Of a DNA stretch of 64,000 bases, positions 43,588 through 56,889 are shown piece after piece. The stretch comes from Patellaria atrata CBS 101060 (taxonomy: Eukaryota). The position numbers and the translations under genes were made by a program. Below the pieces are notes generated by a model. The model ran no database searches, was not told where the DNA came from, and worked only from the letters and a program-made list of their open reading frames with translations. Location of the stretch: positions 1,297,623 to 1,361,622 of the forward strand of contig MU006095.1 in assembly GCA_010093705.1 (NCBI GenBank), written 5' to 3'. Position 1 is the first letter of the stretch. Each line of letters starts with the position of its first letter.

Positions 43588-45937
43588 ATGGACGGTATGC
43601 TTGCACAGACTAAAGGCGCAGCTGAGATGGTTATTCGAGGAGGTCAAAATCCGAAAATTAAGCAGCTCAATCAGTACACCGAGGATGTTCATAACTCGGA
43701 TGCTAGGATCACGTCAGATTATGGTGTCAGGAACAGTAACACAGACGACTGGCTGAAGGTTGTAAATGAGGATAAAACAGGCCCTATGTTGCTCGAAGAT
43801 CCGTTTGCTCGCGAAAAGGTATGATATCGATATCGATATTGATGGTATACAACCCGTTAGCAGGCCTGGCTGATGAATATTTACAGATTCACCGTTTTGA
43901 CCATGAACGGATTCCAGAGCGAGTTGTTCACGCTCGTGGTACTGGAGCTCATGGGACGTTCAAGCTCTTCGAGAGTGCAGAAGATGTCACATACGCCGGC
44001 GTATTGACAGACACGTCAAGAGAGACACCAGTTTTCGTTCGATTTTCAACCGTACTCGGGAGCCGTGGTAGTGCAGACACCGTCAGAGATGTTCGTGGAT
44101 TTGCCACAAAGTTCTACACCAAGGAGGGAAATTGGGATATCGTGGGGAATGATATTCCAGTTTTCTTCATTCAAGATGCTATGAAGTTTCCAGATGTCAT
44201 TCACGCGGGTAAGGTAAGTGTGTTAGCTTTCATTTGTCCCCTACCAGTCCTGATCCTGACCTTTTTCAGCCCGAACCCCACAACGAAGTCCCCCAGGCTC
44301 AAACTGCACATAACAATTTCTGGGATTTCCAATATCTACATTCGGAAGCTACGCATATGTTCATGTGGGCCATGTCTGACAGAGGAATCCCACGGTCCTA
44401 CCGCATGATGCAAGGGTTTGGTGTCAATACGTTCTCACTTATCAATGCTAAAGGGGAACGTCACTTTGTTAAGTTCATCTGGACCCCGGAACTTGGTGTT
44501 CACTCATTTGTCTGGGATGAAGCTCTGAAACTTGCTGGTCAGGATCCAGATTTTCATAGGAAAGATCTGCACGAGGCCATCGAGAATGGTGCTTTCCCAA
44601 AGTGGAAATTCGGTCTTCAAGTTATCCCAGAGGACAAGCAGGATGATTTCGACTTTGACATCTTGGATGCTACTAAAGTCTGGCCGGAAGAACTAGTGCC
44701 GATCCGCTACATTGGTCAAATGGAACTCAACCGTTGTGTGGATGAGTTCTTCCCGGAAACTGAGCAGGTCGCCTTCTGTACTAGCCACATAGTGCCTGGT
44801 ATAGGATTCTCTGATGATCCACTCCTCCAAGGCCGCAATTTCTCCTATTTCGACACTCAATTGTCCCGTCTTGGGATCAACTGGCAGGAACTCCCAATAA
44901 ATAAACCAGTGTGTCCCGTCATGAATCACCATCGTGATGGTCAAGGTCGACACAAGATCTCTAAAGGAACAGTCAATTACTGGCCAAATAGGTTCGAGGC
45001 AGTAGCCCCAGCAAAACCGGAGGAAGGTGGTTACGTTGACTATCCCGCCAAGGTTGCTGGTATCAAAGCTCGGATGCGAAGCAAGAAATTCCAGGAGCAT
45101 TTCAACCAAGCTCAACTGTTCTACAACTCCTTGTCTAAGGTGGAAAAGATGCACGTCATGAGTGCGCTCTCGTTTGAGTTGGATCACTGTGAGGACCCCG
45201 TTGTTTATGGTCGTCTCACACAAAGACTTGCAGACATCGACCTTGATCTCGCACAAACAATAGCAAAGCAGGTTGGCGCGCCTGTACCGCAAGAATCCGG
45301 GCGACCCAATCATGGCAGGACAGCCAAGGGCCTCAGCCAGTTTGATTACATGCCTGAAACCCCGACTATATTGTCTCGTCGGGTGGCGCTCATTATTGCT
45401 GATGGTTATGATGCTGTTGCATATAATGGTGTAAAGGCCGCGCTCTCAGCAGCAGGTGCGGTACCGTTCACCATCAGCGTCCGTCGTTCTCCCATCTTCG
45501 CCGCTGGCGAGGACCAAGGGACCGGTAAGGGTCAGAAACCCGATCATCATTTAGAGGGCATGCGGTCGACAATGTTCGACTCCATATTCGTACCCGGTGG
45601 CGTAGACTCCATCGCAACACTCCGCAAGAACGGACGCGCACTCCACTGGGTCCGCGAAGCATTTGGTCATCTCAAAGCCATCGGTGCTACCGGTGAGGCC
45701 GTCAGCTTCGTCAAGGATGCTTGCGCCCTCCCTGGCTTGAGCTTTGCTGAGACGGGCGACGTGGTCGATAGTTATGGGGTTGTTACCAGCAATGAGAGTA
45801 AGCCGGAGAGCTTCAAGGAGGCGGTTAACTTGGTCAAGGGTGCAAAGGACTTCGTCACGGCGTATTTTTATGCGATTTCCATGCATAAGAATTTCGATAG
45901 GGAGTTGGATGGCTTGTCTTCTAAGTTGGCTTTCTGA
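43588..45937 (+). CDS. catA: Large-subunit monofunctional catalase, intracellular CatA/CAT-1 type. Introns 43819-43886 and 44214-44269
   Basis: [15 protein letters not shown] (distal His), [39 protein letters not shown] (proximal Tyr), C-terminal DJ-1/PfpI-like domain ([19 protein letters not shown]); no signal peptide. Confidence 0.95.
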
Positions 45938-50631: not shown

Positions 50632-52806
50632 ATGCTCCGTCTATCAGAAACAACTCGATTGATTCCGAGAAACTCGGCCTATAACCTTCGAAAGATGCGG
50701 TTTCACCGAGCCGCTGCTATAGCCACCATCAGTACGCAATCTCAAACAGCTATAGGCTCTAATCCTAGTACGGACGCTTTCCTATCCAAGGATAAAGACA
50801 TCGAAAACTTTGATCCGGGTTTCAAACATTTAGTGACCAAAGTCATCCAAACTATGAAACAGGAATTTCTCCACAGCTCTAGCGATGCCAACCCGTTTCC
50901 TACAAATAAAGTTCTTAGCAAAGAGGATAACGTCAGGGACACAACAGCTGCTTTCCGACAGTTGCCGACACCTGGGTTTCTGCATCCTACTGCCGCTATG
51001 GAGAGCAAGGCCTTCGGAGAGTTGAAGCCCTCTGGGCGACTTCGAATGTTTAATGAGGAAACGCGTCTGAGAGAGGAGAAGAAAGCACTCGAGGAGCGGC
51101 GTATAAAGCTTCTTTTAGACCAACATAGAGCTGATTGCAAGGCTCAAACCGGTGATCCGTTTTGGCAGGAGATCTCAAAATGGGAGAAGGTTACTCAGGG
51201 GGATTTTTTAAGTCACAAGTGGCAAGTACGTCATTTCAGCATGTCAAGGCACCACAAGAAGTGAAATGAGTGACTACCACTAGAGCCTCTATCATATTCT
51301 GCTCTATTGTTTCACTTGGACCGATCACTAATCAAGACTAGGTTGCCAATGCTGTTTATGAACTTCAAAACATTGTAAAATTCCTGGATTCTGTTCTCCC
51401 TCCTAAGGTTCCTGGTCCGCGTATATCCACTCAACCAACTACATGGATTTCGAAAAGAGATTTCATTGACGACGTCGAAAAGGGCATGCTTCAGACCACA
51501 ATGGCGGTGAAATTGACCCCTTATATACTAAGCCGCATTAATTGGAAAGATCCAGTAGCTGATCCGATCCGAGTACAATTTCTCCCGCTGAGATCGGCCA
51601 TGTCCTTAGATCATCCAATGGTAGAATTGGATTCGCTACATGAGAGGAATGACATGCCAGTTCCTGGACTTGTCCATAGATATCCCGACCGAGTGCTATT
51701 CCTAGGTATGCATAGTGCAACTCCTTATCGTTTTTTCAATACCAATAGTTACGTGTGCTATATTAACCGCCGTATGAAGCAACACATATCTGCCCCCTCT
51801 TCTGCCGGTTTTGTACACGTGCCTACGCGATTGGGCCTAGGACCGAATGGTTCATGAGGCAAGCAGAGGCCGAAGCGATGAAAGATAATAGTGCGACTGG
51901 CTCTAAACGATGGGCCGCAATGTACGATTATATCGAAAAAACACCTGCTGTTAACGATGTAGTCGTCTCCGGAGGTGATGCTTACATGTTAGCATCCAAA
52001 CAGATAAAGAGTATAGGAGAGAGTTTACTATCCATTCCACATGTTAAGCGCATCAGGTTCGCTACTAAGGGGCTTTCCGTGGGTCCTATGAGGTTTCTGG
52101 ACCCAGACGATGACTGGACGAACAACTTACTCGGACTAAATAATCTGGCTAGAGAAGTTGGAAAAGAAGTATACGTGCATACACATTTCAATCATCCCAA
52201 CGAGATCTCGTGGATCACTCAACAGGCAATGCGTAGGCTGCACAGGAAAGGCTTGCGTGTTCGAAACCAGGCAGTCATGCTCAAGGATGTAAACAATAGT
52301 GTGCCGGTGATGAGCGATCTTATCCGCAAACTTAGCGACATTCACATTGACCCCGTAAGTAATTACTCTTGAGAATCCACAATCATCAGAAACAACATCC
52401 AGCTAATTAATGGAAGTACTACGTCTACATCCCGGACATGACACCCGCGATCGAAGACCTCCGTGTTCCATTACATGAGTTTATTGCTATTGAAAAAGCA
52501 ATCATTGGCAGCATCGGAGGTTTCAAGATGCCGAAATTCGTCGTTGATGCCCCTGGTGGCGGCGGTAAGAGGCCCGCCATGAGCTACGAGTCGTATGATA
52601 GAACTACGGGAATTTCGACCTGGACAGCTCCTGGTGCTATGCCAGAAGGCAAGAAAGACAAGGTTTTTACTTATTATGATCCTTTGTGGTCTCTGCCATG
52701 GTTGCAGAAGGGGAATTTCAACCTTCCAAAAGAGCAAGAAATCAAAGAAGAGGTTACAGAGAACTCCGCCACAAACAAATCTGTAGACAAATCTACCACT
52801 GGGTGA
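50632..52806 (+). CDS. KamA-family radical-SAM/PLP enzyme (lysine 2,3-aminomutase-like) with predicted mitochondrial presequence. Introns 51226-51341, 51706-51779, 52355-52416
   Basis: Spliced protein has PGLVHRYPDRVLFL, CPLFCRFCTR (CxxxCxxC), DVVVSGGD, RIRFATK, HTHFNHPNEI, RNQAVML, PYYVY and VVDAPGGGGK (PLP Lys). Alternative upstream ATGs at 50575 and 50608. Confidence 0.9.
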
Positions 52807-53238: not shown

Positions 53239-54240
53239 TCATCCATCGACCTCAATATCTCTAATCTTTCTCTTACCCCCTACACTACTTTCTTGGTTTG
53301 GTTGCGCATCATCATCTCCCTCAGTCCACTCCACAACCTCCCACTCTACACTCATGTTTCCATCCGCAGATGTATGCCCACCTTTCTGGCGCTTCAGGCG
53401 TCCAAGTCGGCTATCCGAGACCAGGGATTCAAACCACGGAGCCCCGAGATACGGTGAATGGTGTACTATTCTTTGAACCGCAGGGAACACCTCCTCTCCC
53501 CTTTCCCTTCTCCTCAAAACCGACTGCTGTTGCCCCTGTTCCTGCATATGTACCTCCTCCCCTCTTTCCCTTTCCCTTTCCCTTTCCCTTTCCCTTTCCC
53601 TTACCTCCTGCTCCACTTCTTCTTCCGCCTCAGATGCTGCTTCGGAACTCAATCCACTCCTTACTCCCAACTCCCTTAACATCCCAACCACATCATCCTC
53701 GTCAACGCTCCCGAGCGTCAGGCTTATCCTCTCAGCGTCCGCTCTTGTTCTTTCATGCCAGCTCGAAAGCTGTGTCCCGCAGTAGCCGCAGAATTGCCGC
53801 AGTGTGGAAGGGGGTGTGTGGAAGGTCCGCCGAATCGTGCGGTGAGTCTCATCGGGGTAGTAGGCGTATGTGCTGCTGTGGTACCAGGAGAGAGGGATTC
53901 GGAGGAAGGGTGTGAAGGGGGTTGCTTGGTGGCGGCCTGTACATCAGACAGGGTTAGCTATTGTTGGGCTTGGAGGGTTGGAGAGCTAGGGAGATGTTGG
54001 GTGTGGGAGGAGCGACGTCCAACGTGGGGGATCAGAGGGGATGGTGTTGGATAGGGAGAGGAAGCGCTGAATATGGAAAGAGCATGTTTGATAGGGAAGG
54101 CGAAATGTGGGGTTTGGGGAAATCGTACGATTAGAGAGACTGTTGTCGATGATGAGTTCGAGGGCTTGCGCCGAGTTTGAGGGAATGCTGACGAGGTAGC
54201 GGTTACGTCCGCAGGCGCAGGAGCCGTGAAGTGTGGTCAT
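53239..54240 (-). CDS. GFA/CENP-V/Mss4-like zinc-fold protein of unknown function. Intron 54128-53937
   Basis: N-terminal LHGSCACGRNRY; spliced exon 2 has LRIPLSWY, YYPDETHRTIRRTF and RQFCGYCGTQL; C-terminal GAPWFESLV and VEWEVVEW. Confidence 0.78.
53565..53600. repeat. (TTTCCC)6 hexanucleotide repeat encoding an Arg-Glu run on the minus strand
   Basis: Read directly. Confidence 0.85.
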
Positions 54241-56889
54241 GATCGTTGGATCTTCCAGGTTGTAAGGTCTCCTCCCGTCGACTGCCGTCATGCAGGTGGA
54301 GGTTACGCGGCGTGGTATGCAGAAGAGTGGATGTTGTGATGGCCTAAGTTGGAATTGAGAGATTGTAAGTGAGTAGTTAGGTCTGGCGACTACTAGGGAC
54401 CGCCATTGAGTGCTTCGTGAAGAGTAGTGCTGGTGTACGGTGTACGATAGCGAGGGGAGAAAATTATACGCGGTAAAGGTGATGTCAAATTGATGCATGA
54501 CTCGCGCGTAGGCCAGACGCTTCGACGCTTTTCCATCTTCATCTCGAACTCTTGAGAACTTGAGCTGCTTCAACACAAACCTACTACGAGCCATCACCAT
54601 TTCCATTCGGGTTGTTCATCTTCTGCTTGACACAGATGGATATGCTGATGTGACGATTCCATTCCGCATAAGAGCTCCCCAAGTGTACTGTACTGTACTG
54701 TACAACGGATAACTCAATTAAGCTCCCCGCGCCTATCACCGAGACACGTTCACAACCCCATACGCGACTTCGAACGTAGTGGATATGTACCATCCCGCCG
54801 AAATAATAAATATCGGACTATACAACTTCTCTATCAATGAGTCTCTACGAGCTGTGTGTTGTAACTTTGTAAGCCTCTATATCGGCAAAGAAAAGCCCGT
54901 GAGCGGCGTAGCTCTCATCGTGTCATGGCTGCAGAGATAGCAGATATTGCAGATACAGACGGTATATTGACGGACTCGTGAATATCCCATTGCGCACCAG
55001 GCTGCCGGTACAGGCGCTCGGGGGGAAACGAAGAATTCTGCAGGCTAGGTCGGTTCCCTCATCACGTCTTCTGTTTCCAGTAGCTCCATATTTGTGTTTC
55101 TTTCTGCTCCAATCCAGTATTCACCTCATTTTCTTTTTCAGTCTATCCTCTTTGTCCGAGATCTAGGGTTTCATTTCTTAGTTCTGTTCGTTTCACATTT
55201 GTTTTTTCATCTGGCTGGTTCTCGTCTTTGCAATGTTTCCTCTTTTGTCCTGTCTTGACCCTGTATTCCGACCGTGGAGTTGGATATTTCCTTGGAACGC
55301 ACATATCACTCTCGCCATCTTTGCAACGACGTCGATAAAAGGTCCTGTACCCCTCGTCACACCGCATTACAGGAGGAAATCCATGGATATATCCGAGTAC
55401 TGTGCCGTAAGATTTACCCACTCCGGCTGGTGGCTCTTCCGCTGGACCTAGGATCGATGCCGGGTCAATCCGAACGTTACTGATAAGCATTGGACGAGAA
55501 TCCTTCAGCGTCCCGTAGGGGTACTATCATGATGCCTTGTTTACGGGGAAGCACAAACTATCTGGCGAGCCTGGTAGATCCCTACGAGTAGCTAAACATT
55601 TGAGGAAACAGGTTCTGAAAATGTCTGACCGGCCGTCTGACCCATAACTGCACTATTTGAAGCAAGGATCGGAACTGAATCTGCGTCCCCGAAAGAACTT
55701 CTTGAACATATATCCCGGGGTCACAAATAAATCTAGGGTGCCTACTCTGATTGTGCCTTGCTTCAGGTAAATGTATTTCCACTGCGGACGGATATAGTCG
55801 TCTATGGGCCTCTATAGTGTGCTCAAACAAATAGTATGTCTTTACTACCTCCTTGCCCTTTCAGTCCAAAGTTGTATAGAATTCACAAAAAGAGCTAATG
55901 TCAAGACCAGGAATCTTTTACCTTAAAACAGCATCTCCGCAAGTCTCTTTCGTACTCCAGATGCAGTGGCGTGATAGGTGGTAAACGTAACCAATACATC
56001 CACACCGAAAAGTTGCCCCTCCTGCTTCGACTATCATTGGGGAAGGTTCCTCTACTCCGCACAAGGGGGGCAATCAGTTTGCCACCGGCTGTGACAAACT
56101 ACCACACGCCTCGGCAGCTGACGCGTAGGGCTTTGCTGCTCTCCTCGACTTTTATACGTGGAAGTCTTTGTCCTGGTACCGCACGCAAACCCCTTCAAGC
56201 TCATGCGATTTTGAAGTAGTTCGTCCTCCCTTCTTACCATTTTCCGGCTTTTCTGTCTTTTCTAGGTAACATCTAGGACCTCTAAACTGACTGTGCTCTT
56301 GAAGTTCCAAAACTCAGTTGCTATTATCCCTCCTCTTCAAGTTATTCTGCAGATCATTCCCATCAAGCATTATCTTCATAAGTATTTTTTACAACATGTA
56401 TAGACACCTTGTTCAGAAACTTAATTTGTCTAGAGTTAAGCATGTTCAGCAAACTACAACATTCATGGCTGGGATGTTGCTTGAACTTTCCGTATCCTAT
56501 GTCGCTTTTGGACTCTGTCATAGAACAAACTCCTAAATTTCCACACGGACACAGCACGATCTGGATCACCTTTGCAAATTGAATGATAGCTGTAATAGAT
56601 TATACATGGTATTTACACTGTGTTACCATTAGATACTAAGTAACGACTTGTGCATTGTTCTCATACACGGCCGTAGAGCACAGTTTGACCACAGTGAACT
56701 CCCACAACATTTTGTGTACGAACTGAGCACTCGCAATTCTTCTTTAAATCTCTGTCTATGCAACAACGTCTCCGTATATTCTTCCCCATCGATTTTTCTT
56801 AATCATAACCTACACATATTTTCACAATCACCTACACAACCTCAAACATCTACATCAACACCAACAACTAAATACCTACCCTCCCAACG

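Follow-up and report, generated by a model that had tools for sequence, protein, structure and literature searches.

A candidate mitochondrial lysine 2,3-aminomutase encoded by a solitary, intron-containing gene of Patellaria atrata

We analysed a 64,000-nucleotide stretch of contig MU006095.1 of Patellaria atrata CBS 101060 (assembly GCA_010093705.1, positions 1,297,623 to 1,361,622, forward strand), hereafter the window, and identified at 50632-52806 a plus-strand gene of four exons and 640 codons that encodes a member of the KamA family of radical S-adenosylmethionine (SAM) enzymes (Table 1). The frame opens with an ATG at window position 50632, is free of internal stops and closes with a stop codon ending at 52806; judged by exon 3, the gene is single copy in the genome. 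We propose that its product is a lysine 2,3-aminomutase (LAM) that is imported into mitochondria, where it would convert lysine to beta-lysine.

All three introns have GT..AG ends and branch-like sites, as expected from a preliminary description of this DNA, and their positions are conserved across eukaryotic loci. Scanning metagenomes with an alignment of exon 4 yielded 80 loci, of which 45 remained after removal of 24 near-duplicates and 11 that could not be scored by script. The position of intron 3 is shared by 34 of these 45 eukaryotic loci and that of intron 2 by 31 of the 32 scorable ones. Intron 1 recurs at its position in 29 of the 31 eukaryotic loci that show the exon-1 motif (52 examined), 24 times with a GTR donor found by script and, by eye, three times with a GTC and twice with a GC donor. 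In two prokaryote-style gene calls, P0010 and P0013, the reading frame simply runs on through introns at these positions. Judged by this positional conservation, the introns are beyond chance and real. The CxxxCxxC motif is intact, as described earlier, but it does not become visible only after splicing: it lies entirely within exon 3 and is complete in the unspliced stop-to-stop frame 51767-52372, and splicing merely joins that frame to a start codon.

A public protein from this gene, P0001, bears the source name Patellaria atrata kama family protein and matches our model without difference over residues 123-602. The public gene model includes a fourth intron at 52689-52752, which we rejected, as its donor (GTCTCT) is non-consensus and homologues retain the DPLWS end. 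Upstream of the public start, M123, the frame is open for 165 codons (from 50503); codons 1-122 were open in 47 of 20,000 shuffles, and the other five frames contain 3-13 stops over the same codons. Because of the open upstream frame and the DPLWS end kept in homologues, we prefer the three-intron model. P0001 was the sole significant blastp match to residues 1-176, and the charged helix at residues 136-171 was not seen in other stored homologues.

The whole protein has only four cysteines (residues 169, 324, 328 and 331), the last three of which form the CxxxCxxC motif. The GGGGK motif noted previously is part of PGGGGK, with K562 as the lysine that binds pyridoxal phosphate (PLP). The only solved relative by sequence is Clostridium subterminale KamA (PDB 2a5h; E 1e-58). 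In the alignment with 2a5h, R311, Y312 and R315 of the HRYPDR motif correspond to R112, Y113 and R116 of the clostridial enzyme, and D518, D555 and K562 to D293, D330 and K337. R134, S169, D293 and D330, which we take to be the lysine contacts of 2a5h, are kept as R333, S383, D518 and D555. These four residues and K562 are retained in 36/36 eukaryotic and 26/26 bacterial clade rows, and Y515 in 35/36 and 25/26. The clostridial enzyme also shares D172, R198, H230, Q258, Y287, Y288 and Y290 with the window protein. BlsG (arginine 2,3-aminomutase) and Eam (glutamate 2,3-aminomutase) belong to the same family and use the same mechanism, but in the BlsG reference Thr occupies the D330 site, where the window protein has D555, and Eam presumably carries Lys/Asn at the two Asp sites. 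A structural model of P0001 (pLDDT 91.3) has 2a5h as its top Foldseek match (E 4.8e-30, TM 0.62/0.74), followed by matches from E 1e-5, and is predicted to adopt the LAM fold (PLP fold type VII).

P0001 scores 223.5 bits against TIGR00238 (KamA family radical SAM), above the cut-off of 199.2, confirming the family assignment made earlier. It falls below the cut-offs of the AblA-like model (202 against 396 bits), the BlsG and Eam models (TIGR04468 and TIGR04368; 164 against 600 and 177 against 650) and the EpmB model TIGR03821 (151 against 369.3), and nine relatives likewise fail the narrower models. The match to LAM_C covers profile positions 3-29 of 127 only. The C-terminal multimerisation domain of KamA/AblA presumably carries the zinc cysteines, and those of the clostridial enzyme are absent from the window protein. 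By sequence, the enzyme is LAM-like in its working, yet lies outside KamA/AblA, EpmB, Eam and BlsG as their models define them. Fold, CxxxCxxC motif and PLP lysine are common to the window protein, clostridial KamA and the KamA/AblA enzymes of Bacillota and methanogens. In contrast, identity to the clostridial enzyme in the structural alignment is 31%, the two belong to separate clades (branch 0.88, 100/100), and the window protein has no C-terminal zinc site but distinct motifs at both termini and a predicted presequence; its gene contains introns and has no fermentation or ablB genes with it.

Phylogenetic analysis of these relatives, together with KamA/AblA and EpmB, was based on a 62-row IQ-TREE tree, from which one long row of a 115-row FastTree set and other redundant rows were omitted. 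A single clade (98/98) contains the 21 eukaryotic rows; for four of them, unnamed proteins, the eukaryotic label itself derives from the first tree, which makes this part circular. The clade is nested in a 49-row subfamily (100/100, stem 0.88) that is separate from KamA/AblA, BlsG and EpmB and includes enzymes of Myxococcota, Verrucomicrobiota, Latescibacterota, rhizobia, cyanobacteria, Bacteroidota and Streptomyces; the tree singles out no bacterial sister group of the eukaryotic clade. Named homologues come from Orbiliomycetes, Dothideomycetes, Leotiomycetes, Sordariomycetes, Eurotiomycetes, Agaricomycetes, Physarum and one chytrid (Phlyctochytrium), the last being a search match outside the tree. 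We rejected a recent transfer into Patellaria atrata, as the intron sites are common to the whole clade and a grouping with Pleosporales is not rejected (approximately unbiased test, p 0.224). The Physarum copy groups with those of Aspergillus, Penicillium and Hirsutella (99/95), contrary to the species phylogeny, which suggests either transfer between slime mould and fungus or old paralogues. Two divergent members from unnamed records, P0153 and P0143, have long insertions and a bacterial-type C-terminal tail and are possibly separate eukaryotic acquisitions.

The first 30 residues include six Arg, one Lys and one acidic residue (Glu), in line with the Arg-rich, acid-poor N-terminus described before, and the hydrophobic moment of the predicted presequence (0.50) exceeds the 95th percentile of the protein itself (0.46). 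We called a start presequence-like if its first 30 residues have at least three Arg, at most one acid and a net charge of at least +3. This holds from the ATG at 50632, which has A at -3, and from two in-frame ATGs upstream (50575 and 50608). It also holds for 36/54 and 51/75 named eukaryotic homologues, truncated models and Lys-rich starts being among those that fail, and for 22/25 raw genomic eukaryotic loci, against 1/53 presumed bacterial homologues. The background is 154/4479 internal windows and 22/147, 4/51 and 2/32 unrelated eukaryotic ORF starts. Because presequence-like starts are enriched across the clade, import is likely, and we predict that the enzyme very probably resides in the mitochondrial matrix, as had been suspected. 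The Podospora orthologue was not found in the supplements of PMC10886707, PMC7969656 and PMC4683621, a blank that is no evidence on location.

Table 1. Features of the aminomutase gene in the window.
Feature	Position	Strand	Remarks
Exon 1	50632..51225	+	codons 1-198: presequence-like start, long linker, predicted helix, core onset FWQEISKW at aa 177
Predicted mitochondrial presequence	50632..50721	+	first 30 aa; own heuristic, not TargetP/MitoFates
Charged helix aa 136-171	51037..51144	+	AlphaFold helix 14-49 of P0001
Intron 1	51226..51341	+	116 nt, phase 0, GTACGT..CTAG
Exon 2	51342..51705	+	carries HRYPDR
Intron 2	51706..51779	+	74 nt, phase 1, GTATGC..GAAG
Exon 3	51780..52354	+	radical SAM core, SGGD, RFATK, HTHFNH, RNQAV; PF04055 and TIGR00238 matches
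CxxxCxxC (C324, C328, C331) and putative substrate Arg R333 (= R134)	51791..51820	+	motif and mapping to 2a5h
Eight-residue insertion aa 344-351	51851..51874	+	missing in 80% or more of 36 eukaryotic homologues; low pLDDT nearby
Intron 3	52355..52416	+	62 nt, phase 0, GTAAGT..GAAG
Exon 4	52417..52806	+	D518, D555, PGGGGK with K562, clade-typical YYDPLWS end, low-conservation tail, stop

No partner gene was found among 45 open reading frames (ORFs) of the window, nor in a further set of eight, which agrees with the preliminary description, and the absence extends to the whole genome. That search was made exon by exon, so that split genes can be missed. It gave no match to AblB (search controls were positive), KamD (PF09043), Kce (PF05853) or poly-lysine synthetase; the two best matches to EpmA (TIGR00462) were below the cut-off and read as ordinary lysyl-tRNA synthetases, and the sole efp-like match was eIF5A. 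The genes around kamA are housekeeping genes. We also rejected a fungal gene cluster, since housekeeping genes (ATP1, cyclophilin-RRM, Vps10, ELMO and Nup85) surround the aminomutase gene in 24 long eukaryotic loci; among the clusters listed (92/161 ORFs scanned), no neighbour ORF of the eukaryotic loci clustered with the ORFs at 40-62 kb of the window. Two nearby GNATs are unrelated to each other. The nearest genes encode a large-subunit catalase (43776-45937, plus strand) and a weakly GFA-like protein (53239-54615, minus strand; E 0.025); neither recurs beside homologues. In 6 of the 17 fungal loci with at least 3 kb upstream (L112, L125, L132, L133, L158 and L175), a gene for an MCH/MCT-like transporter of the major facilitator superfamily lies head-to-head with the aminomutase gene. 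In the Patellaria atrata genome, the best match to this transporter (35-39% identity) is encoded some 70 kb from the aminomutase gene, on the same contig (G000:C7:1420191). The genome also has one LYC1-like lysine N-acetyltransferase gene (G000:C2:1434298, L197), whose product has no presequence.

Bacterial relatives are similarly isolated. We detected no conserved partner in 80 bacterial loci, where, kamA itself aside, the commonest neighbour families (phosphodiesterase and WYL regulator) occur in 13 and 12, and none of EF-P, EpmA, AblB, KamD and Kce among the Pfam-scanned neighbours (88/914 filtered ORFs). A solitary gene is the rule for the subfamily, bacteria included. The lack of partners reported earlier thus stands, but not its oddity, as solitude is normal here and the fungal gene is widespread and annotated. 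Among 50 of the 80 bacterial genomes, EpmA is over the cut-off in 39, KamD in 18 (the PF09043 search therefore works) and AblB in one, and 37 have a second KamA-family match. The 13 with a sole KamA are mostly incomplete metagenome-assembled genomes (MAGs); four of them have EpmA, and nine have none of EpmA, KamD and AblB over the cut-off. In G003 and G005 (L061, L050), G006 and G029, EpmA is over the cut-off and the only KamA-family gene belongs to this subfamily, which may replace EpmB there; Latescibacterota genomes show this combination. Five Verrucomicrobiota genomes (G028, G033, G046, G049 and G050; L037, L042, L069, L078 and L079) have a sole KamA and none of EpmA, KamD and AblB over the cut-off, and in some Verrucomicrobiota loci an Rrf2 regulator gene lies upstream of kamA.

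Some bacterial members do have informative neighbours. A Fulvitalea plasmid (L097, 8970-13800) carries a run of marR, subfamily kamA, a sodium:solute symporter gene and ablB. A Streptomyces member is clustered with vioC, vioD, a carbamoyltransferase and a glycosyltransferase gene, a cluster that we read as streptothricin-like; beta-lysine is the streptothricin precursor (PMC10604320). Because these relatives stand beside ablB or in clusters of the beta-lysine antibiotic type, lysine is probably the substrate of the window enzyme. The Streptomyces LAMs of beta-lysine natural products share the 49-row subfamily, an RFATK-type motif, a C-terminal extension and an aerobic host with the fungal enzyme, but they have 31-32% identity to it and are clustered with genes for non-ribosomal peptide synthetases (NRPS) or ligases, whereas the fungal gene lies amid housekeeping genes. 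A kamA region has been linked genetically to negamycin (bioRxiv 10.1101/2025.07.31.667836), whose KamA2 is likened here by description only. E. coli EpmB (YjeK) belongs to the same family, uses the same cofactors and likewise has no clostridial zinc domain; it is distant in the tree, has Glu at the D330 site and, unlike the fungal enzyme, works where EpmA and EF-P are present, neither of which was found in the fungal genome. The chemistry of LAM and its split from YjeK are covered in PMC9081730 and PMC2821294. Members near a MetRS-like gene were seen on a Klebsiella plasmid (L098, 8503-13879) and a Streptomyces replicon (L095, 13965-19938). We did not count Myxococcus MXAN_4699 (predatory swarming; bioRxiv 10.64898/2026.05.15.725110), as its two-KamA operon was unseen in the 80 loci and its sequence was not compared. 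The subfamily looks like a general source of beta-lysine recruited to different ends.

The gene is already common and database-annotated in fungi. Neurospora crassa P0349 (Q7SH66; 50% identity to the window protein over 431 aa), Podospora PODANS_1_13090 and the Aspergillus oryzae/flavus proteins belong to the same clade or are close matches, and share presequence-like starts and intron sites with the window gene, whereas the window copy differs in its longer leader, its additional helix and the eight-residue insertion. PMC3364853 lists Neurospora NCU02663, which we equate with P0349 by name only, as an L-lysine 2,3-aminomutase; its deletion strain is scored there only for cellulase activity, which was unchanged. 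One lysine 2,3-aminomutase is listed in Moniliophthora (PMC3948071). The literature search, with most subscription papers outside its coverage, found no biochemical study of the fungal enzyme and no characterised fungal orthologue, in line with the earlier remark that no characterised fungal beta-lysine pathway is known; PMC4022528, PMC7402349 and PMC10886707 deal with other aminomutases. A link to hypoxia had also been suggested, for which we found no support. NCU02663 appears in a 391-gene column of PMC5395666, inferred to list genes up in delta-sah-2 from 391+5=396. A hypoxia gene driven by the sterol regulatory element-binding protein (SREBP) does not fit, since NCU02663 would then be among the genes that rise on loss of the SREBP factor; the Neurospora gene is reported to be regulated by light and VVD. 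An NCU02663 row in PMC5295593 reflects a weak chromatin immunoprecipitation peak 5.7 kb away and was not used.

Given the analyses presented above, we suggest, with a probability of about 0.6, that the window enzyme is a nuclear-encoded LAM that is imported into the mitochondrial matrix and converts lysine to beta-lysine there. By known LAM chemistry, a reduced [4Fe-4S] cluster would cleave SAM to give an adenosyl radical, which would abstract hydrogen from C3 of the PLP-lysine aldimine, and the amino group would then shift from C2 to C3, yielding beta-lysine. The mitochondrial matrix provides SAM, PLP, cluster assembly and electrons from ferredoxin, and this would account for both the predicted presequence and the absence of dedicated helper genes. 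On this reading, fungi acquired the gene from bacteria once, early, and it is now an unclustered core-type gene.

Several observations weigh against this proposal. No assay is reported for any member of the eukaryotic clade in the literature searched, the score against TIGR03820 (the lysine 2,3-aminomutase equivalog KamA/AblA) is 234.1 bits, below the cut-off of 525.4, and the context that supports lysine comes from bacteria at 31-46% identity. The exon-wise search of the genome found no downstream enzyme (KamD, Kce, AblB, EpmA, EF-P or poly-lysine synthetase). The presequence rule is our own heuristic, and the gene model of P0001 starts at M123 (window 50998), without a presequence. The window copy itself is divergent, with an end branch of 0.68 (median 0.32), changes in 9 of 127 conserved columns (rank 34 of 37), Ile-Pro directly before D518 and the insertion at residues 344-351.

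A branch twice the median length could mean that the copy in Patellaria atrata is decaying or silent. We think this very improbable, as the frame is open, the introns are canonical, all catalytic residues are present and changes are strongly biased to variable columns: near-invariant columns are kept at 118/127, against 116/285 of the others (p 5e-26), and there is no signature of repeat-induced point mutation (TpA/ApT 0.77 in the gene, 0.78 in the window). By these sequence measures the copy is under purifying selection, contrary to the relaxed selection raised earlier as grounds for doubt, and is very likely active. The long branch, the Ile-Pro next to D518 and the loop insertion might instead reflect another diamino acid substrate (such as ornithine) or a specificity that has shifted in a fast-evolving copy, as might the failure to pass any named lysine equivalog and the occurrence of some bacterial members in polyketide synthase/NRPS or MetRS-like clusters. 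This is improbable in view of the four lysine-contact positions, all of which are retained, and Pro also precedes the D293 site of a rhizobial enzyme whose gene adjoins efp and epmA. As to location, a protein starting at M123, as in the public model, would be cytosolic or dual-located. That ATG has fair context, GC by position is flat in codons 1-122, and the leader, at 176 residues, exceeds those of all 105 stored homologues that bear a presequence-like start (maximum 136, median 79). We nevertheless doubt this start strongly, given the 165 open codons upstream, the rarity of 122 open codons in shuffles and a clade in which presequence-like starts are the norm.

If the enzyme does make beta-lysine in mitochondria, our tentative first guess is that the free product undergoes unlinked breakdown by general aminotransferases and acyl-CoA enzymes. 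A stress solute ranks second: the same enzyme in the same place could supply beta-lysine, or N-epsilon-acetyl-beta-lysine if a general lysine acetyltransferase acts on it, to protect spores or exposed hyphae. One subfamily member adjoins ablB, the genome has a LYC1-like acetyltransferase, and in delta-vvd, NCU02663 exceeds its level in white-collar mutants about 50-fold (PMC3364853). This fate is nonetheless unlikely, with no AblB match in the genome, AblB in a single clade bacterial genome of 50, and a LYC1-like protein that has an acidic N-terminus and no presequence and is encoded on another contig. The preliminary description had proposed an undescribed beta-amino-acid pathway or a modification. 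Beta-lysine metabolism remains plausible, but protein modification finds no ligase or target in the genome: EF-P-like attachment of beta-lysine to a mitochondrial protein or RNA would accord with EpmA in 39/50 clade-bearing bacterial genomes, four of them without another KamA, and is made very doubtful by the sub-cut-off lysyl-tRNA synthetases and eIF5A that are the only EpmA- and efp-like matches, and by the second KamA-family match in 37/50 bacterial genomes. A broader version is somewhat less improbable, in which fungi and slime moulds keep a mitochondrial beta-lysine system with a dedicated, unrecognised acceptor (a mitochondrial protein, RNA or lipid) or an unknown small molecule; its ligase would be unrelated to EpmA and AblB, and the system would have been kept since before the chytrid-Dikarya split or spread by early transfer. 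The enzyme might also run in reverse in vivo, salvaging bacterial-derived beta-lysine to alpha-lysine for mitochondria. The lysine/beta-lysine equilibrium favours beta-lysine, however, and fungi synthesise their own lysine. In favour of salvage, LAM catalysis is reversible (PMC9081730), many carriers feed on bacteria (Myxococcota and Physarum), nine of the 13 sole-KamA bacterial genomes, mostly incomplete MAGs, have no EpmA, KamD or AblB over the cut-off, and the MCH-like transporter gene is head-to-head in 6/17 fungal loci. That pairing is found mostly in related Sordariomycete-like loci and is absent from the window, and we consider salvage quite improbable.

Bacteria and archaea are the known sources of radical lysine 2,3-aminomutases. 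A conserved clade from aerobic eukaryotes whose members bear presequences would imply that beta-lysine is made in fungal mitochondria, where it has no described fate in fungi in the literature searched, and the use of the product appears unstudied. The interest lies in the clade and not in this locus, because annotated copies number in the hundreds and the one in the window is divergent. Thanks to a reported Neurospora deletion strain, the question could be tested at low cost; the unnamed subfamily is also common in myxobacteria and Verrucomicrobiota, and an assay would be its first. If our proposal is correct, mitochondrial iron-sulfur biology would gain an extra radical SAM client.

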